Below are positions 165 to 63,575 of a stretch of 64,000 nucleotides of DNA, one piece after another (positions within the stretch are counted from its first letter, which is position 1; each line of letters starts with the position of its first letter). This stretch comes from an uncultured Coriobacteriia bacterium (GTDB lineage: Bacteria; Actinomycetota; Coriobacteriia; Coriobacteriales; QAMH01). The DNA lies in NCBI GenBank assembly GCA_902475535.1, contig CABRZR010000002.1, positions 2,124 through 66,123 on the forward strand, given 5' to 3'. Under the pieces are notes generated by a model. The model did not search any database, was not told where the DNA came from, and saw only the letters and a program-made list of their open reading frames with translations. The translations under genes were made by a program, and so were the position numbers.

Positions 165-332
165 GGAAGGGCGTTGCATTGGGATACACGAGGGCGTCTT
201 GCCCGTCCCTCCGACTAGGCGATGCGGCCCCCATCTGCAATGACGCAGCGTCTGATTTCGGACAGCGCCCTCGCATCCAGAGCACGACCCTATTTTCGAA
301 AGCGCTCTTCGCAAAAGATGCATGACAATTCC

Positions 333-361
333 TTGCGCCCGCTCGCTCATTGCTCTATCAT
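333..361 (+). promoter_or_regulatory. candidate sigma-70-type promoter for rplJ-rplL
   Basis: TTGCGC (333-338), 17 nt spacer, TATCAT (356-361), about 180 nt upstream of rplJ. Hand scan only; weak -35. Confidence 0.25.
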
Positions 362-388
362 TCCATCTCGCATTTGTAGTTTTACCCG

Positions 389-536
389 CTACCAAAGACA
401 GCCGGTGTCCCATCCGGGACTTAAGGGAAGGCAAGCCTTCCGCCCGCCGAGGTGGTCGAACATGAATGATGCTTTAGGCATGCACTCTCGTCGGCCTCCG
501 CTGTCACGCAGCGGGGGTCGATTTGTATGAAGGGAG
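389..536 (+). promoter_or_regulatory. structured 5' leader of rplJ (possible L10-leader type autoregulatory RNA)
   Basis: Long untranslated stretch directly upstream of rplJ with hairpins GGAAGGC/GCCTTCC (426-441) and CCGCTG-TCACG-CAGCGG (498-514). rplJ operons are classically autoregulated through a leader bound by L10(L12)4. No covariance model was run. Confidence 0.3.
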
Positions 537-542
537 GTGCGC

Positions 543-1061
543 ATGCCTACACAGCAAAAAGTCGAGCAAGTTGAGAAGCTCACCGAGCTTTTCAAGAACA
601 GCGAGGGTTGCTGGTTCGTCGATGCTCGTGGCCTTACCGTCAAGGAGTCCCAGGAGCTTCGTCGCAACATTCGCGAGGGTGCCGGACAGATGCACGTCTT
701 CAAGAACAACCTCGCCGCCATCGCGCTCAAGAACCTCGACCTTCCCGAAATCCCCGAGATTCTGGCTGGCCCCACGGCCTTCGTGTTCTGCGATGGTGAC
801 GTGGCCGCTCCGGCCAAGGCTCTCAAGGACTTCGCCAAGGACCATGAGGCTCTGGAGATCAAGGGTGGCATCGTCGACGGCAAGGTCTATTCCGTCGAGG
901 AGGCACTCAAGGTCGCCGATCTGCCCAGCAAGGAGCAGCTCGTTGCCATGCTTCTGTCCACCATGCTCGCACCGGTCACGGGTCTCGCCCGTGTCTGCGC
1001 GGCGCCGGCGGAGGGTTTGGCTCGCACGATTCAGGCTATCGCAGACCAGAAGGCTGCATAG
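543..1061 (+). CDS. rplJ: 50S ribosomal protein L10
   Basis: MPTQQKVEQVEKLTELFKNSEG... L10-like sequence directly upstream of rplL. ATG 543 is preferred over GTG 537 because AGGGAGG (531-537) lies 5 nt upstream. Confidence 0.93.
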   Translation: MPTQQKVEQVEKLTELFKNSEGCWFVDARGLTVKESQELRRNIREGAGQMHVFKNNLAAIALKNLDLPEIPEILAGPTAFVFCDGDVAAPAKALKDFAKDHEALEIKGGIVDGKVYSVEEALKVADLPSKEQLVAMLLSTMLAPVTGLARVCAAPAEGLARTIQAIADQKAA

Positions 1062-1124
1062 CGCCACGTTTGTTATGTATATGCAAGGTGGCGTGATTGC
1101 CGCCGCAACTGAAAGGTTTTAGTT

Positions 1125-1724: not shown

Positions 1725-3308
1725 ATGCTCGAGAAGGCCGATCTCAAGAAACGCATCGACAAGGAAGAGTACGAGCAGCGCAAGAACGAGCTCACCGAGA
1801 AGCTCGTGCGTTTGCAGCAGCAGTGCATCCGCGAGAAGTTTCCCGTTGTCGTATGCGTGGATGGCTGGAGCGCATCGGGTAAGGGCACGAGCATCTCCAA
1901 GCTGGTAAAGGACCTCGACGCCCGTGCGTTCACCGTGTATTCGATGAACGACCCCACGGAAGACGAGTGCCGCTATCCGCTCATGAAGCGTTTCTGGGAG
2001 CGCATCGGCCAGTACGGCACCATGACCTTTTTCGACAAGAGCTGGTATTCCGAGATCATCAAGAACCTCTCGGGCATGATCAGCGGCGACAAGGGCTCCG
2101 CCCATCTGCCGCAGCCCAAGATTCGCGACCATGTCGATTACATCGTAAAGTCGCGCAATGGCCAGACGGGCCTGTTTGCCGAGTCCACCCAGATTCTCGA
2201 GGGGCAGCTCGTCGCCGATGGATACCTCATCATCAAGCTGTTCTTCCACATCAGCAAAAGGGAGCAGACCAAGCGCATCGAGGCACTCGAGGCGGATAAG
2301 AACACTGCCTGGCGCGTCAACGACGAGGATCTCTACCAGAACAAGAACTACGACAAGATCTATCCCATCATCGACAAACTGCTCGAGCTCACCGATTCCG
2401 CCGACGCCCCCTGGCATATCATCGCCGCCGAGAATCGTCGCGTGCGTCGTATCGAGTTCCTCGAGACGCTCGTCACCGAGATCGAAGAGGGCCTCGCGCG
2501 TCACGTTAAGATGAAGGAGAACCCCGTCATCATTCCCGATGACTTTCCGCTTCCGCGCACGCGCCATGACCTCGTGAAGGTGCAGTCAGTCGAGGAGATT
2601 CGCCATGACCTTACGATTGACCCCGAGGAGTACCGCAGCGAGCTCAAGAAGGAGCAGGAACGTCTCGCCACCTTGCAGCTCGAGATGTACCGCAGGCAAA
2701 TCCCGATGATGCTCGTGTTTGAGGGTTGGGATGCGGCCGGCAAAGGTGGCGCCATCAAACGCATCGCCTCTGCCCTCGATGCCCGCGATTATCGCGTCGT
2801 TCCCTCCGGTGCGCCCACCAAGCCCGAAAAGGAGCATCCCTTCCTGTGGCGTTATTGGATTAGTCTACCCAAGAGCGGGCACACCGCAATCTACGACCGC
2901 TCCTGGTACGGCCGCGTCATGGTCGAGCGTGTGGAGGGGTTCTGCACCGATTCCGATTGGCGCCGTGCCTTCGAGGAAATCAACGATTTCGAGTGGGAGA
3001 TGTTCCGCACGGGCACGTTGCTCATGAAGTTCTGGGTCAACGTGAGCCAGGACGAGCAGCTCGCGCGTTTCGAGGCGCGCAAGAACGACCCGGACAAGGC
3101 CTGGAAGCTCACCGACGAGGACTGGCGCAATCGTGAGAAGTATCCGCAGTACTGCGTGGTCATCAACGACATGCTGCGCATGACCTCGACGTACTTCGCC
3201 CCCTGGAACATCATCGAGTCCGATGACAAGAAATACGCGCGCATCAAGACGATCAAGGCCATCAACGCCGCGATCGAGGAGCGTCTGAAGCAGGACAAGA
3301 AGAGCTAG
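1725..3308 (+). CDS. ppk2: two-domain polyphosphate kinase 2 (class II PPK2 / polyphosphate:AMP phosphotransferase-like)
   Basis: 527 aa with two tandem PPK2 modules. Each has a P-loop-like motif: VCVDGWSASGKGTS in the N-terminal half and LVFEGWDAAGKGGAIK in the C-terminal half. RBS GGAGGGGGAG lies upstream. Confidence 0.85.
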   Translation: MLEKADLKKRIDKEEYEQRKNELTEKLVRLQQQCIREKFPVVVCVDGWSASGKGTSISKLVKDLDARAFTVYSMNDPTEDECRYPLMKRFWERIGQYGTMTFFDKSWYSEIIKNLSGMISGDKGSAHLPQPKIRDHVDYIVKSRNGQTGLFAESTQILEGQLVADGYLIIKLFFHISKREQTKRIEALEADKNTAWRVNDEDLYQNKNYDKIYPIIDKLLELTDSADAPWHIIAAENRRVRRIEFLETLVTEIEEGLARHVKMKENPVIIPDDFPLPRTRHDLVKVQSVEEIRHDLTIDPEEYRSELKKEQERLATLQLEMYRRQIPMMLVFEGWDAAGKGGAIKRIASALDARDYRVVPSGAPTKPEKEHPFLWRYWISLPKSGHTAIYDRSWYGRVMVERVEGFCTDSDWRRAFEEINDFEWEMFRTGTLLMKFWVNVSQDEQLARFEARKNDPDKAWKLTDEDWRNREKYPQYCVVINDMLRMTSTYFAPWNIIESDDKKYARIKTIKAINAAIEERLKQDKKS

Positions 3309-3819: not shown

Positions 3820-4085
3820 GCCACAATACAGGGCATATCAACATGCATCTGCCAAGAAATGCGTTCCTGTGACCGTGGGCTCGACCATGACGTCACATTA
3901 CGGGACATATTCGCCAAGAAGTGTGCTTCCATGGTCATGAGTCCGACCATAGTGCCACAGTATTGGGCGCAGCAGCACATACCTGCCAAGAAATGTGCCC
4001 TCATGACCATCTGTAAAACCACGGGGCCACATTCTGAGACGCTCACTCCCTTTTCCTATTGCCAAGAAAGATGAAATGCGCATTG
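3820..4085. repeat. array A of a ~72-bp degenerate tandem repeat (core GCCAAGNAATGYGYYYYCATGRYC plus hairpin)
   Basis: GCCAAG cores at 3851, 3913, 3985 and 4061 (spacings 62, 72 and 76 nt). Units contain ATGGTC-N8-GACCAT hairpins, for example 3931-3950. Related units occur at 16350-16555 and 18005-18210. Confidence 0.8.
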
Positions 4086-4211
4086 GGCCTGACTGACGTC
4101 AAAATAAACTTAGTTTGAGATAATAAATCACCAAAAATATACCGTTTGCCGATAAATTGGGCACGTTTACGATTGTATTTGTCTTGAAACGACCGTTCAT
4201 CCAAAAACTTC

Positions 4212-16349: not shown

Positions 16350-16555
16350 ACACCACATTTTCTGGCACTCAGCATGACTTCTGCCCAGCCATGTGCTTCT
16401 GTGGTCGTGCACTTAGTCACCAGGTCACACTCCATGGCGCTTTTGCCAAGCAATGCGCTCTCATGGTCGCCTTCCCGACCATAGTGCAGCAATTTAGGGC
16501 ACATGCATGGGATTGTGCCAAGTCATGTGTTCCCATGACCGCATTCTCAATCGCT
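16350..16555. repeat. array B of the ~72-bp repeat family
   Basis: GCCAAG cores at 16445 and 16517 (72 nt apart), plus a degenerate unit upstream. Contains hairpin ATGGTC-GCCTTCCC-GACCAT (16463-16482). The segment CACACTCCATGGCGCTTTTGCCAAGCAATGCGCTCTCATGG is nearly identical to 18089-18127. Confidence 0.8.
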
Positions 16556-17961: not shown

Positions 17962-18004
17962 ACAGTTATGCTGTGCCGATGAACACGTCCTGTTGTTCGA
18001 TATG

Positions 18005-18210
18005 CGACCATGAGGACACATTGCTTGGCACCAATCTTCGATGTGCCCTGTAATGTGTACTGGTGGTCGCAATTGCTGCCACAGCAGCACATTCCATGGC
18101 GCTTTTGCCAAGCAATGTGCTCTCATGGCTGTGCTCTCGACCACAGAACCACAATTCGGGGCGGAGACCAGGAGCGCTGTCCAATAATGTGCTCCTGTGG
18201 CCATGTTGGT
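18005..18210. repeat. array C of the ~72-bp repeat family (includes one inverted unit)
   Basis: GACCATGAGGACACATTGCTTGGCA (18006-18030) is the reverse complement of the core. A forward core lies at 18107 and a degenerate one near 18180. Confidence 0.8.
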
Positions 18211-45742: not shown

Positions 45743-46987
45743 TCATAAATGACCGTCGTTCATGCCGCGGGTGCCGGTGTCCTTGGTCTTGAGCTTGAGC
45801 TCGCGGCCAAATTTGAGCGCTCCATCGCCAAACCTGTCGCGTACCTTGTCCGCTGCGGCAATGGCCTCGGCGTTGCCCTGTTCGGTCTCGGCGTTTGCAA
45901 ACAGGTCGAGCTGCTCGTCTTGCGTGTCGAATCCCGATATGCCCACGCCGACGAGGCGCACGGCATCGCCCTCTTGCCAGATTTCGCCGATGAGCCTCTT
46001 GGCGACGGGAATGAAGACGCCCTCGTCGTCGATGTTGGCGCCCAATCCCTGCTGGGCGCTGCGTATCGACAGGTCGTCATAGCGCAGCTTGAGCGTGACC
46101 GTATGACCCGCAAGCTGCTTGCGCCGCAGACGCCGACCAACCATCGATCCCAGGAAATCGACGGCGTCCTCGATTTCTGCACGGGTGGTGAGGTCGCTTG
46201 CGAAGGTACGCTCGTGGCTCACGGATTTAAGCGTGCGTTCGGTCACGATGGGACGCTCGTCTATTCCCGCGGCCCGGTCGCGCATGACCGGTGCGTTCAC
46301 GCCAAAGATGGGACGTAGGGTCTCCACATCCGCAGCAGCCAGTTCCCCGAGAGTGCGTATGCCTACCGCCTCGAGACGCTTTACGCTCTGCTTGCCGATG
46401 CCGGACATGATGCGAATCTTCATGGGGGCGAGAAATGCCGCCTCGCTTCCCGGGTACACCACGGTGAGACCTTGGGGCTTATCGAGGTCGGAGGCGATCT
46501 TTGCGACCGTCTTGCCGCTTGCCACGCCGATCGAGCACGTGACACCCAGCTCGGCGACATGCTCCTGGATACGCATGGCGATAGCCACGGGATCATCTCC
46601 CGTGAAGCGCCCGGGAGTGACGTCGAGAAAGGCCTCGTCAATGGAGACCTGCTCGAGCAACGGCGATTCGGCATAGAGGATATCCATGACGGCGCGGGAC
46701 ATCTCGTGATAGCGTTCGAAGTGGGGCGTCGTCCAGATGGCGTCCGGGCACAGACGCTCGGCGACAGCCGAGGCCATGGCGGAGCGCACTCCATAGGTGC
46801 GGGCTTCGTAAGAGCAGGTGGAGACGACACCGCGACGATCGGCGCGACCGCCGACGATGACCGGCTTGCCGCGCCACTCGGGATGATCGAGTTGCTCGAC
46901 GGAGGCAAAGAACGCATCAAGGTCGACGAGCAGGATCGCCTTGCCCGACCACGTGCGCTGCAATATGTCTGCCTGCTTGGAAGTCAT
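45743..46987 (-). CDS. dinB: DNA polymerase IV (Y-family)
   Basis: From ATG 46987: MTSKQADILQRTWSGKAILLVDLDAFFASVEQ...SIDEAFLDVT... The track ORF start at 47140 runs through the palindrome and is rejected. Confidence 0.93.
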   Translation of the reverse strand: MTSKQADILQRTWSGKAILLVDLDAFFASVEQLDHPEWRGKPVIVGGRADRRGVVSTCSYEARTYGVRSAMASAVAERLCPDAIWTTPHFERYHEMSRAVMDILYAESPLLEQVSIDEAFLDVTPGRFTGDDPVAIAMRIQEHVAELGVTCSIGVASGKTVAKIASDLDKPQGLTVVYPGSEAAFLAPMKIRIMSGIGKQSVKRLEAVGIRTLGELAAADVETLRPIFGVNAPVMRDRAAGIDERPIVTERTLKSVSHERTFASDLTTRAEIEDAVDFLGSMVGRRLRRKQLAGHTVTLKLRYDDLSIRSAQQGLGANIDDEGVFIPVAKRLIGEIWQEGDAVRLVGVGISGFDTQDEQLDLFANAETEQGNAEAIAAADKVRDRFGDGALKFGRELKLKTKDTGTRGMNDGHL

Positions 46988-47022
46988 GCCGACATTGTAC
47001 CTGGACGGATGACGGTGGGGAC

Positions 47023-47130
47023 GGGGAGGTGACAGGGGGACGGGGGACAGTGGGGACGGGGTTTCTGTCACGTCCATGGACGTGACAGAAACCCCGTCCC
47101 CACTGTCCCCCGTCCCCCTGTCACCTCCCC
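47023..47130. repeat. perfect 108-bp palindrome with G-quadruplex motifs on both strands
   Basis: Every position p pairs with 94153-p from 47023 to 47130, centred on CCATGG at 47074-47079. The left arm contains G5-AC-G5-ACAGT-G4-AC-G4 (47035-47061). The right arm is its exact complement. Confidence 0.95.
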
Positions 47131-47133
47131 ACC

Positions 47134-47160
47134 TTGCCACGCTCCTTCATCGGGTACAAT
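47134..47160 (+). promoter_or_regulatory. candidate promoter of the DUF47 gene
   Basis: TTGCCA (47134-47139) and TACAAT (47155-47160). The spacer is only 15 nt, so this is tentative. The -35 abuts the palindrome edge. Confidence 0.3.
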
Positions 47161-47191
47161 ATATCTTCGCAATCCGAGAAAGGTGGATGTG

Positions 47192-47860
47192 ATGGCACGC
47201 AAGCAAAAGTTTGACTACTTCGAGGCGTTCGTGGAAATCGGCAACTGCGCCGTCGAATATGCCGATGCCCTTGTCGATTATCTGACGAGTCACTATGACG
47301 AGGAAAAGCACATGGGTGCTATCAGTCCGGCGAAAGTTCTCGAGCACTATTACGTCTTGCATGCGATCGAGGAGAAGTCCGACAGCGTCGTTCAAGCCAT
47401 CACCGAGAACCTCATCCTCGAGTTCATCGCACCTATCGAGCGTGAGGACATCCTCGAGCTTGCCGATGAGCTCGATACGGTGGTTGACGAGCTCGACGAT
47501 GTCTTGCAGCGTATCTACATGCACAACATCACCGTCATCACGCCAGAGATCATCGAGATGATTCACATCGTGCAGAAGACGACCCATGCCCTTCAGGCTG
47601 CCTGCGACAAGTTCACCCACTTCAAGAAGTCGAAATCCATCAAGGACTACATCACGGAGATCCATAAGTACGAGGACGAAGGCGACCGCGTCTACATCGA
47701 GTCTGTGCATCAGATCTACAAGAAGGCCGAGGAAGACAAGTTCGAGCACGCGCTCTTCGCCGTCGGCCTCTACGGTGTGCTCTCCGCACTCGAGAAGTGC
47801 TGCGACGCATGCGAGACCGCGGGCGACATCATGGTCGCCGTGCGCCTCAAGAACTCCTAG
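47192..47860 (+). CDS. DUF47 (PhoU-like, TIGR00153-type) protein
   Basis: MARKQKFDYFEAF...IEREDILELADELDTVVDELDDV...YEDEGDRVY... are typical DUF47 helices. ATG 47192 lies 5 nt after AAGGTGG. Confidence 0.8.
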   Translation: MARKQKFDYFEAFVEIGNCAVEYADALVDYLTSHYDEEKHMGAISPAKVLEHYYVLHAIEEKSDSVVQAITENLILEFIAPIEREDILELADELDTVVDELDDVLQRIYMHNITVITPEIIEMIHIVQKTTHALQAACDKFTHFKKSKSIKDYITEIHKYEDEGDRVYIESVHQIYKKAEEDKFEHALFAVGLYGVLSALEKCCDACETAGDIMVAVRLKNS

Positions 47861-47964: not shown

Positions 47965-48049
47965 GCGGGCGTGGCGGAACTGGCAGACGCGCTGGATTTA
48001 GGTTCCAGTGGAGCAATCCGTGAAGGTTCGAGTCCTTTCGCCCGCACCA
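47965..48049 (+). tRNA. tRNA-Leu (anticodon TAG), CCA encoded
   Basis: Hand-folded. Acceptor GCGGGCG/CGCCCGC, anticodon stem CTGGA/TCCAG with loop TT-TAG-GT, long variable arm, T-loop GGTTCGAGTCC, 3' ACCA. Confidence 0.9.
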
Positions 48050-48111
48050 CAGACCGAAGCGCCTCGGCGCATTCTAAGGGCGCCATGATGGCGAGGAATT
48101 TTGGAGGAACG

Positions 48112-55461: not shown

Positions 55462-55466
55462 TCGCG

Positions 55467-55544
55467 CACGGGATGTGTCGAGGGGCCAGACCCCCTGGCA
55501 CATGCACATGTGCCAGGGGGTCTGGCCCCTCGACACATCCCGTG
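55467..55544. terminator. perfect 78-bp palindrome (38-nt arms, 2-nt loop) between convergent genes; bidirectional terminator candidate
   Basis: CACGGGATGTGTCGAGGGGCCAGACCCCCTGGCACATG-CA-CATGTGCCAGGGGGTCTGGCCCCTCGACACATCCCGTG. It fills the 88-nt gap between the larB stop and the stop of the minus-strand gene. No U-tract. Confidence 0.7.
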
Positions 55545-55549
55545 CTTCT

Positions 55550-56262: not shown

Positions 56263-56514
56263 ATGTGTTTTAGGCCCGCAGGTGTAGAGATCGATCTCAA
56301 CTGCCCGTCGTGCGGCAAGAAGCTGCCCGTCATCGGCAACACCGTTCTCAAGAAGTGCCCGTTCTGCAAGTATGAGTTCACTGAGCAGGACATGCAGGAC
56401 TTCCAGGCTCAGCTTGGTGGCCCCGCTGGTGCTGCCGCTCCTGGCGCTCCCGCAGCCCCCGGTGCCCCCGGTGCCCCCGCCGCTCCCGGTGCTCCCAAGG
56501 CTCCTGGTGCGTAA
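56263..56514 (+). CDS. small zinc-ribbon protein with Pro/Ala/Gly-repeat tail
   Basis: 83 aa from ATG 56263 (AAGGAG 6 nt upstream). CPSCGKK...CPFCKYE, then GAAAPGAPAAPGAPGAPAAPGAPKAPGA. Confidence 0.6.
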   Translation: MCFRPAGVEIDLNCPSCGKKLPVIGNTVLKKCPFCKYEFTEQDMQDFQAQLGGPAGAAAPGAPAAPGAPGAPAAPGAPKAPGA

Positions 56515-58760: not shown

Positions 58761-58778
58761 CATTTCGAGCGGAGCGAA

Positions 58779-58851
58779 GGTGTGACAAGGGGACAGGTCA
58801 TTTGTCCCACTGGAACCCAGTGTGACAAATGACCTGTCCCCTTGTCACACC
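58779..58851. repeat. 73-bp near-perfect palindrome built from two inverted copies of the GTGACAAATGACCTGTCCCCTTGTCACAC motif
   Basis: Arms GGTGTGACAAGGGGACAGGTCATTTGTC (58779-58806) and GACAAATGACCTGTCCCCTTGTCACACC (58824-58851). Inner CACTGG-AAC-CCAGTG. One mismatch. Confidence 0.9.
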
Positions 58852-58864
58852 TAAAGCTCGCTGC

Positions 58865-63540: not shown

Positions 63541-63575
63541 TGCGTGACAAATGACCTGTCCACTTGTCACACGCA
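63541..63575. repeat. single copy of the GTGACAAATGACCTGTCC(A/C)CTTGTCACAC motif
   Basis: GTGACAAATGACCTGTCCACTTGTCACAC at 63544-63572 differs at one base from the unit at 58822-58850. It is itself a hairpin (GTGACAA/TTGTCAC). It lies in the htpG/folC divergent region. Confidence 0.85.

Follow-up and report, generated by a model that had tools for sequence, protein, structure and literature searches.

The perfect 108-bp palindrome located at positions 47023-47130 of the window (the whole 64-kb stretch of Coriobacteriia DNA that was analysed) is very probably a lineage-specific, REPIN-like inverted dimer of a G-rich hairpin, unit G, lodged in an insertion-tolerant hot spot. Unit G would be a subfamily of a REP family dispersed among Coriobacteriia, with unit A as its canonical unit, and the hot spot would be the gap between two core promoters, which lie back-to-back in relatives and between which the strains hold different REP modules.

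The palindrome and the dinB-DUF47 spacer

The two arms of the palindrome (47023-47076 and 47077-47130) measure 54 nt each, begin with GTGACAGGGGGAC, finish with TTTCTGTCAC, and are 100% complementary, adjoining each other without a spacer (0 nt) around the centre CCATGG; the perfect self-complementarity described in an earlier, sequence-only reading of this DNA was thus confirmed by sequence comparison. The left unit (47029-47071, plus strand) is formed by a GTGACAG/CTGTCAC stem around a 29-nt G-rich loop, and the right unit (47082-47124, minus strand) is its exact reverse complement. Pairing extends past the perfect part into a quasi-palindrome at 47014-47133, through outer GGTGGGG and CCCCACC stretches, with a short left-side bulge breaking the pairing. 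Folded as single-stranded DNA, the element reaches -80.7 kcal/mol, against -32.3 +/- 3.2 kcal/mol in 200 dinucleotide shuffles, none of which (0/200) was as good (z = -15.2). There is no second copy of the arm sequences in the 64-kb window, the chance expectation being 0.

A canonical G-quadruplex (G4) motif, defined here as four or more G-runs of 3 or more with loops of 1-7, occupies the loop of the left unit on the plus strand (G5-AC-G5-ACAGT-G4-AC-G4, 47035-47061), and its mirror lies within the right arm on the minus strand (47092-47118). Both had been reported before and both are there, as are the further G4 tracts at 47017-47026 (GGGGACGGGG). These tracts fall in a flank (47003-47026, plus strand, GGACGGATGACGGTGGGGACGGGG) that corresponds to the -35/upstream region of dinB and is kept in all strains; this flank is duplicated within the palindrome arm at 47038-47061 (24 nt, 88%).

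The neighbours are, as previously stated, divergent, and the palindrome ends 36 bp from the start codon of dinB and 62 bp from that of the DUF47 gene. The former encodes a Pol IV family protein of 414 aa (IMS and IMS_C domains; 45743-46987, minus strand, ATG at 46987), and the latter a DUF47/PhoU_div protein of 222 aa (47192-47860, plus strand, ATG at 47192). A sigma-70 consensus scan of the spacer (46800-47400) found no full site, and the promoter assignments are therefore drawn from conservation across species. The putative -10 box of dinB is TACAAT at 46994-46999 (minus strand), 6 nt before the ATG, and that of DUF47 is TACAAT at 47155-47160 (plus strand), inside the conserved TTCATCGGGTACAAT; the TACAAT upstream of dinB and TTCATCGGGTACAAT upstream of DUF47 are unchanged in all strains. 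Taking into account that the arrangement of a -10 hexamer, 6 nt and an ATG before dinB is retained in four species, a leaderless dinB mRNA can be inferred. A possible -35 hexamer of DUF47, TTGCCA, lies at 47134-47139 on the plus strand, with a 15-nt spacer to the putative -10; the common allele has CAGCCA at this place, so that the window allele appears to provide DUF47 with a better -35-like hexamer. The supposition that both promoters must overlap or flank the palindrome holds in the sense that the element lies between them, adjoins both putative -35 regions and covers neither -10 box. A LexA operator at dinB was considered and rejected, as no SOS box of the GAAC-N4-GTTC type was found at 46988-47191 with up to 1 mismatch, although the LexA motif of Coriobacteriia may differ.

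Among 11 other assemblies of the species, the palindrome allele is missing in 10 and present in one (L011). The ten assemblies without it (L001-L010) encode an identical DUF47 protein and keep both -10 boxes and both flanks, the left one to about 47026 (…CGGTGGGGACGGGG) and the right one from about 47137 (GCCACGCTCCTTCATCGGGTACAAT…), with spacers of 190-245 bp, versus 204 bp in the window. In the commonest allele, that of the L001 type, which includes the GTDB representative L047, unit B, an imperfect hairpin (GGTGTGTCAGAGGGTCAGACCCCCTGACACACC), precedes unit A (GTGTGACAAATGACCTGTCCACTTGTCACA), and there are zero G4 motifs; L002 and L007 represent two more alleles, with one G4 motif each.

L011 is an independent metagenome scaffold that is 99.6-100% identical to the window, differs from it by 7 SNPs in 2.8 kb and is the only scaffold to encode an identical DinB. 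Its spacer reads GGGGAGGTGACAGGGGGAC-N18-AAACCCCGTCCCCACTGTCCCCCGTCCCCCTGTCACCTCCCC, that is, an outer stretch of the left arm and, inverted, 42 nt of the right one, around an 18-N gap at the centre. The inverted outer parts of both arms are therefore held on the two sides of the scaffold gap, and both arms exist in this assembly. Since L011 shares the palindrome while the other strains, 96-98.4% identical to the window, are without it, the palindrome is real and restricted to one sublineage.

More distant DUF47 orthologues (82% and 65% identity) show the same divergent pairing with dinB. The distance between the two -10 hexamers is 87 bp in L109, 33 bp in L110 and L111, and 12 bp in L113, versus 155 bp in the window. 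Boxes that lie only 12-87 bp apart in relatives indicate that extra material has been inserted here and that it is dispensable, the perfect palindrome filling the gap between the two -35 regions. On this comparison, the palindrome appears to be a strain-specific insert in a dispensable gap between two promoters.

A dispersed repeat family and an associated transposase

The sequence-only reading had pointed to a likeness between the GTGACAG...CTGTCAC of the arms and other palindromes of the window. This was correct, and it was the key clue to a repeat family. Searching GTDB representative genomes for the exact unit-A 20-mer GTGACAAATGACCTGTCCMC gave 69 stretches, almost all of them from Coriobacteriia (Coriobacteriales bacterium OH1046, several Eggerthellaceae and Atopobiaceae MAGs, and others); among these genomes, the MAG 'Coriobacteriia bacterium HGM04055' (96-99% identity) stands for the species of the window. 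A profile derived from the loci so obtained (consensus GTGACAAGGGGACAGGTCATTTGTCAC) detects 137 units in the 69 loci, from about 10 Coriobacteriia genomes, and 3 in the window, the isolate OH1046 alone having about two dozen unit-A loci. Pairing into close inverted dimers is frequent (58/137 units, forming 29 dimers), and the family includes at least 22 near-perfect palindromes, whose arms measure 22-51 nt and whose loops measure 0-8 nt. When 19 dimers were analysed with RNAalifold, 13 of the 32 stem pairs showed compensatory double changes and almost none was broken; compensatory changes maintain the hairpin of the family. Tandem duplications of the G-rich half-unit GTGACARGGGGACA are common among the copies, and internal G-rich duplications occur as well. 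A CRISPR array was rejected, the units being inverted and not evenly spaced direct repeats.

The gene context of the family was surveyed with a crude, home-made gene caller based on codon usage, which placed 63 of 66 clusters outside gene calls. The spacers that hold these clusters are convergent in 20/63 cases (32%), tandem in 31/63 and divergent in 12/63 (19%), against backgrounds of 20%, 63% and 17%, respectively. With divergent shares of 19% and 17%, a divergent spacer is an ordinary location for this family, and the earlier generalisation that such palindromes usually lie between convergent genes fails for it.

Three other members or likely members lie in the window. The site at 58778-58852 is a canonical unit-A inverted dimer with 36-nt arms (GTGACAAGGGGACAGGTCATTTGTCAC), and that at 55466-55545 is a perfect 80-bp palindrome whose perfect 39-nt arms are unit-B-like (GTGTCGAGGGGCCAGACCCCCTGGCAC); both are situated between convergent genes, and the 55466 palindrome is also present in independent assemblies. 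A lone unit A (REP singlet) matches the family profile at 63541-63574 on the plus strand; a listing of 11-mer repeats of the window, although noisy, exposed this extra unit-A copy at 63546. Even when as many as 3 mismatches were allowed, the unit-B consensus had no match in the window, and an Rfam search at gathering thresholds returned only a tRNA-Leu, with no RNA family for the palindromes. It can also be observed that these palindromes hamper short-read assembly, as seen in the N-gap of L011 and in the 6/7 contigs that break inside the 55466 palindrome.

The 58778-58852 site was compared across ten other strains, and its content varies among them. Five strains (L096, L099, L101-L103) have a unit-A monomer; the inverted dimer of the window is shared by L098; L095 and L100 hold a unit-B hairpin; and L097 (GCA_025992705.1) contains a palindrome with the arm GTGACAGGGGGACGGGGGTTCTGTCAC, a short unit G, which is degenerate in L094. 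Two loci, this one and the dinB-DUF47 spacer, are thus occupied by different modules in different strains.

The short unit G of L097 links the 108-bp element to the family. The unit-A profile matches each arm only through profile positions 1-13 (GTGACAGGGGGAC, the first 13 nt of the unit), with an E-value of 0.56, which is not significant alone. The window arm aligns end-to-end with the 27-nt GTGACAGGGGGACGGGGGTTCTGTCAC, with one 16-nt G-rich insertion and, in our own comparison of the two sequences, 1 substitution, and the insertion is identical in both arms of the 108-bp palindrome. In turn, short unit G and unit A, compared as 27-mers in our own alignment, are about 78% identical and have both stem halves in common. 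Unit G is known from two sites, the dinB-DUF47 spacer of the window and the L097/L094 site. A 25-mer specific to the arm gave 0 matches in JGI metagenomes and an 18-mer gave 0 matches in viral contigs, and an outer 20-mer matched 6 unrelated environmental contigs in JGI metagenomes, none of which corresponds to this locus.

The family loci were scanned for HUH and Y-x-x-N-P motifs, and three ORFs of approximately 250-290 aa carry them; they come from three genomes, and all lie beside family units. In L041, the transposase gene (296-1066, minus strand) has an inverted unit on either side, at 260-308 and 1172-1235, and those of L026 and L018 are likewise flanked by inverted units. One copy was located in the window's species, with the same gene context in five assemblies: in L104 its gene (2501-3253) has inverted unit-A-like repeats at 2453-2481 and 3254-3288, and its product, P0108, is encoded on the same 2.18-Mb contig as L097, with GACAAATGGACAGGTCATTTGTCCC upstream of the gene and the reverse complement of this sequence directly behind the stop codon. 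The units flanking the transposase are of type A, not of type G. The L041 protein matches Pfam Y1_Tnp with 53 bits (cutoff 23), and the best and sole meaningful NCBIfam match is the REP-associated tyrosine transposase (REP_Tyr_transpos), with 54.6 bits for L041 and 64.5 bits for P0108, below the equivalog cutoff of 80. The HUH and YxxNP motifs are invariant among the Y1_Tnp proteins, and 1927 homologues of the transposase were found, some of them bearing the JGI name RayT; no solved relative turned up in a PDB sequence search. A RAYT-like transposase is bracketed by inverted units, in a REP-RAYT-REP arrangement, in four genomes, including one of the window's species.

Formation of the element and competing explanations

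The perfect symmetry of the palindrome, together with the presence of the same insertion in both arms, points to two routes that these features do not distinguish. One arm could have been copied from the other, through fold-back or template-switch replication or through quasipalindrome correction; alternatively, the whole element may propagate as a single-stranded hairpin. Quasipalindrome correction and template-switch inverted duplication are mutational mechanisms rather than element families. They would explain the identical 16-nt insertion in the two arms, their 100% complementarity, and the monomer and dimer alleles at a single site; no intermediate was seen at the dinB-DUF47 locus. The G4 motifs would have arisen as a by-product when the GGGGAC core expanded, in part by copying of the neighbouring flank. 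Mobilisation, including any action of the RAYT on unit G, is a proposal supported indirectly by the different modules that strains have at these two sites; no transposition event was seen, and allele replacement by homologous recombination would yield the same strain pattern as transposition. The element is presumed to be neutral, or nearly so, for the expression of dinB and DUF47.

The alternative that survives best, although it is a good deal less likely than membership of a mobile family, is a purely local origin, in which a fold-back event inverted and duplicated the G-rich spacer in situ, unrelated to RAYT mobility. This would fit the perfect symmetry with zero spacer, the 24 arm nucleotides that duplicate the adjacent conserved flank, and the restriction of the allele to one sublineage, and the unit-A monomer and dimer found among strains at the 58778 site resemble an in-situ dimerisation. 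Nevertheless, the arm ends are those of a unit at another locus in L097, which means that the unit, at least, occurs at more than one site, and the dimer architecture is the norm of the family. Moreover, a local origin concerns the last step only and is compatible with family membership.

Rather unlikely is the possibility that the turnover of these REPINs generates natural promoter alleles. According to this proposal, the palindrome would part once-overlapping promoters to 155 bp, bring new -35 DNA and act as a supercoil sink prone to cruciform or G4 formation, and it could thereby alter the expression of dinB, and with it mutability, or that of DUF47. In a related proposal, the RAYT would target existing REP remnants, which would explain why subfamilies swap at identical sites among strains.

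An adaptive switch is more improbable still. It has been proposed in the sequence-only reading as a cruciform/G4 device dedicated to the promoter of dinB, and in this scenario the negative supercoiling produced by divergent transcription would drive extrusion or G4 formation, tuning dinB and/or DUF47. The element does lie exactly between the two divergent promoters, adjoining both -35 regions, and canonical G4 motifs are rare, with 3 in the 64-kb window (the two of the palindrome and one other) and 13 in 504 kb of related loci; the alleles of L002 and L007 also have a motif. Folding predictions that allow for G4s give a divided answer. For the isolated G-rich arm, a G4 clamped by the GTGACAG/CTGTCAC stem is preferred (-50.7 vs -22.2 kcal/mol), whereas for the whole element a plain hairpin is predicted (-136.6 kcal/mol with RNA parameters), whether G4s are permitted or not. 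The full element favours the hairpin and the lone arm the G4, and thus G4 formation would be plausible only in an arm exposed without its complement. The comparison with related strains, which had been suggested as a check, turned against the switch: other modules occupy the locus, the palindrome is absent from 10/11 other assemblies, and the commonest allele carries no G4. In relatives, the compact dinB-DUF47 spacers have neither the element nor any G4 motif, and even inside the species the motif is tied to particular alleles and is not conserved. Furthermore, the GGGGAC core and the flank duplication account for the G-runs, the spacer has no SOS-box-like site that would suggest integrated damage control, and the element probably belongs to a dispersed, RAYT-associated family. 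The idea of a dedicated device is therefore not supported, and a REPIN-like dimer is the preferred reading.

A role as terminator or insulator, the hairpin halting read-through or antisense transcription between dinB and DUF47, is very improbable. The two other long palindromes of the window do lie between convergent genes, and the family is somewhat enriched in convergent spacers (32% vs 20%); against this, both neighbours are transcribed away from the element, so that no sense transcript enters it, there is no T-tract, a scan of 46800-47400 found no terminator-like site, and most strains and all relatives are without the element. An intrinsic (rho-independent) terminator was rejected, given that there is no T-run and that both genes point away. 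Least credible of all is an assembly artefact, a chimeric fold-back creating a palindrome absent from the cell. Artefacts of this type are well known for long perfect palindromes, and assemblers struggle with this DNA (the gap of L011, the contigs ending inside the 55466 palindrome); against this, the palindrome is in a mid-contig position with correct conserved flanks on both sides, the independent L011 scaffold has both outer arm parts inverted and SNPs of its own nearby, and many isolate and MAG assemblies contain comparable palindromes that were read through (L013 and L067 from the isolate OH1046; L087, L097, L098).

Relation to known repeat systems and significance

In E. coli, REP/BIME elements are frequent in 3' UTRs between convergent genes, and they can stabilise mRNA or attenuate transcription. 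The Coriobacteriia family resembles them in consisting of extragenic palindromic units, often in inverted pairs, and in the position of the 55466 and 58778 palindromes between convergent genes. However, there is no sequence similarity, and the 108-bp copy is placed upstream of two promoters, neither of which transcribes it; the RNA-level roles of REP/BIME are therefore inapplicable to this copy. With promoter palindromes that form G4s or cruciforms, the element shares a four-run G4 motif on each strand, located approximately 40-110 bp upstream of the two putative transcription starts, and a perfect inverted repeat that could extrude a cruciform. In contrast to promoter G4 elements, its motif is not conserved in the species and is embedded in a duplex/hairpin that outcompetes the G4.

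The closest likeness is to REPIN/RAYT systems. REPINs are hairpin-forming pairs of inverted REPs that show compensatory changes, spread extragenically and are associated with RAYTs (PMC3116915, PMC3337134), the compensatory changes between arms having been reported by Bertels and Rainey (2011, PMC3116915). As in those systems, two inverted short palindromic units form a long hairpin present in dozens of extragenic copies, singlets occur beside doublets and some tandem clusters, compensatory changes are found, presence varies among strains, and a Y1/HUH transposase gene is flanked by inverted units, here of type A. Differences from the REPINs described previously (PMC3116915, PMC3337134) are also evident. 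The host belongs to the Coriobacteriia (Actinomycetota), and not to Pseudomonas or enterobacteria, and the units abut (loops of 0-12 nt) to give near-perfect palindromes of 60-108 bp, whereas REPIN units are about 70 bp apart. Unlike known RAYTs, the Coriobacteriia protein, of about 250 aa, carries some 120 aa of HTH-like extension at its C-terminus and does not reach the NCBIfam RAYT cutoff. The 108-bp copy itself departs from a typical REPIN in being a G-expanded variant of a subfamily, and it is at most a candidate RAYT substrate.

It had been anticipated that the regulatory hypothesis would fall if the element proved to be a generic REP, occurring in dozens of copies in terminator positions with no effect on the expression of dinB or DUF47. 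As far as the generic REP is concerned, this is largely what was found, since the family is dispersed, REPIN-like and RAYT-associated, with dozens of copies per genome. No description of REP or REPIN in Coriobacteriia was found in searches of the literature on Coriobacteriia palindromic repeats and on RAYT/REPIN of Actinobacteria, and a REP/REPIN-RAYT system in this class is apparently undescribed.

Thus, a tempting story about a G4/cruciform switch at a mutator polymerase is replaced by a testable explanation. The Coriobacteriia are common Actinomycetota of the human gut, and the system that they appear to harbour is characterised by unusually long, loop-less and near-perfect palindromes, with several subfamilies (A, B and G) that swap at identical sites among strains. 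Short-read assemblies of these gut bacteria are systematically broken by the palindromes, at which contigs end or N-gaps appear. Should the alleles change promoter output, they would contribute to differences in expression among strains.

RAYT-like proteins and their repeat neighbourhood

The RAYT-like proteins of Coriobacteriia, encoded in the window's species (L104, 2501-3253) and at a second locus flanked by inverted units (L041, 296-1066) and represented among the homologous proteins P0001-P0120, are about 250 aa in size and carry a conserved C-terminal extension of approximately 120 aa, with an HTH-like RQIERLTGIGR motif at its end and a weak match to a sigma-70 region-4-like domain (E = 9e-4). 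These proteins may constitute a distinct RAYT subgroup. Several repeat subfamilies lie side by side around the transposase gene of L104, where a unit-B hairpin, GTGTCGGGGGGTCTGACCCCGTGACAC, is located between cobW and hypA (4070-4096), and further unit-A-like copies are found at 1908-1934.

The dinB start and other features of the window

In four species (the window, at 46985-46999, and the relatives L109, L110 and L113), a TACAAT or TAGAAT hexamer is placed exactly 6 nt upstream of the dinB start codon, and the start is devoid of a Shine-Dalgarno sequence, suggesting a leaderless dinB mRNA conserved across all of them. On the other side of the palindrome, a tRNA-Leu (47965-48049) is located between DUF47 and tig. 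The gene callers, which yield a product of 480 aa, run the trigger-factor ORF across this tRNA, as does the ORF list, the start supported by Pfam being near 48085. The sole other canonical G4 motif of the 64-kb window is found on the minus strand at 56449-56496, and an imperfect inverted repeat of a different sequence family (42-nt arms, 76% complementary, 20-nt loop) at 1499-1602. Between 16001 and 18000, GC content falls to 0.50, versus about 0.60 elsewhere, and the word TTTGCCAAGCAATG recurs near 16442, 18004-18030, 18104 and 35328; possible explanations are a small foreign island and IS ends.

Variation among strains and hairpins on unrelated contigs

At the ortholog of window 58778-58852 in L094 (GCA_003149935.1, about 1940-3129), an IS element encoding an rve integrase with HTH_38 has inserted immediately beside a degenerate unit-G element, so this REP site is, in addition, either attractive to IS elements or permissive for their insertion. 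The poly-G tract of unit B is strain-dependent in length (G10 in L095 versus G6 in L100, about 1960-1990), which suggests homopolymer slippage inside these repeats. Furthermore, (GGGGACA)n ... (TGTCCCC)n hairpins, beginning with GTGACAGGGGGACGGGGGAC, are present on two unrelated environmental metagenome contigs of high GC (0.67-0.70), L083 (about 7175) and L084 (about 1471), and the GGGGAC-hairpin theme may reach past Coriobacteriia.

Assembly breakage at the palindrome 55466-55545

Six of the seven independent short-read contigs carrying the ortholog of this 80-bp palindrome (L087-L093) terminate within it, 22-59 nt past the stop codon of the upstream gene. L087 spans the palindrome, with one mismatch between its arms, and in L088 the 2-nt centre is inverted (TG versus CA). 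Metagenome assemblies are systematically broken up by these palindromes.
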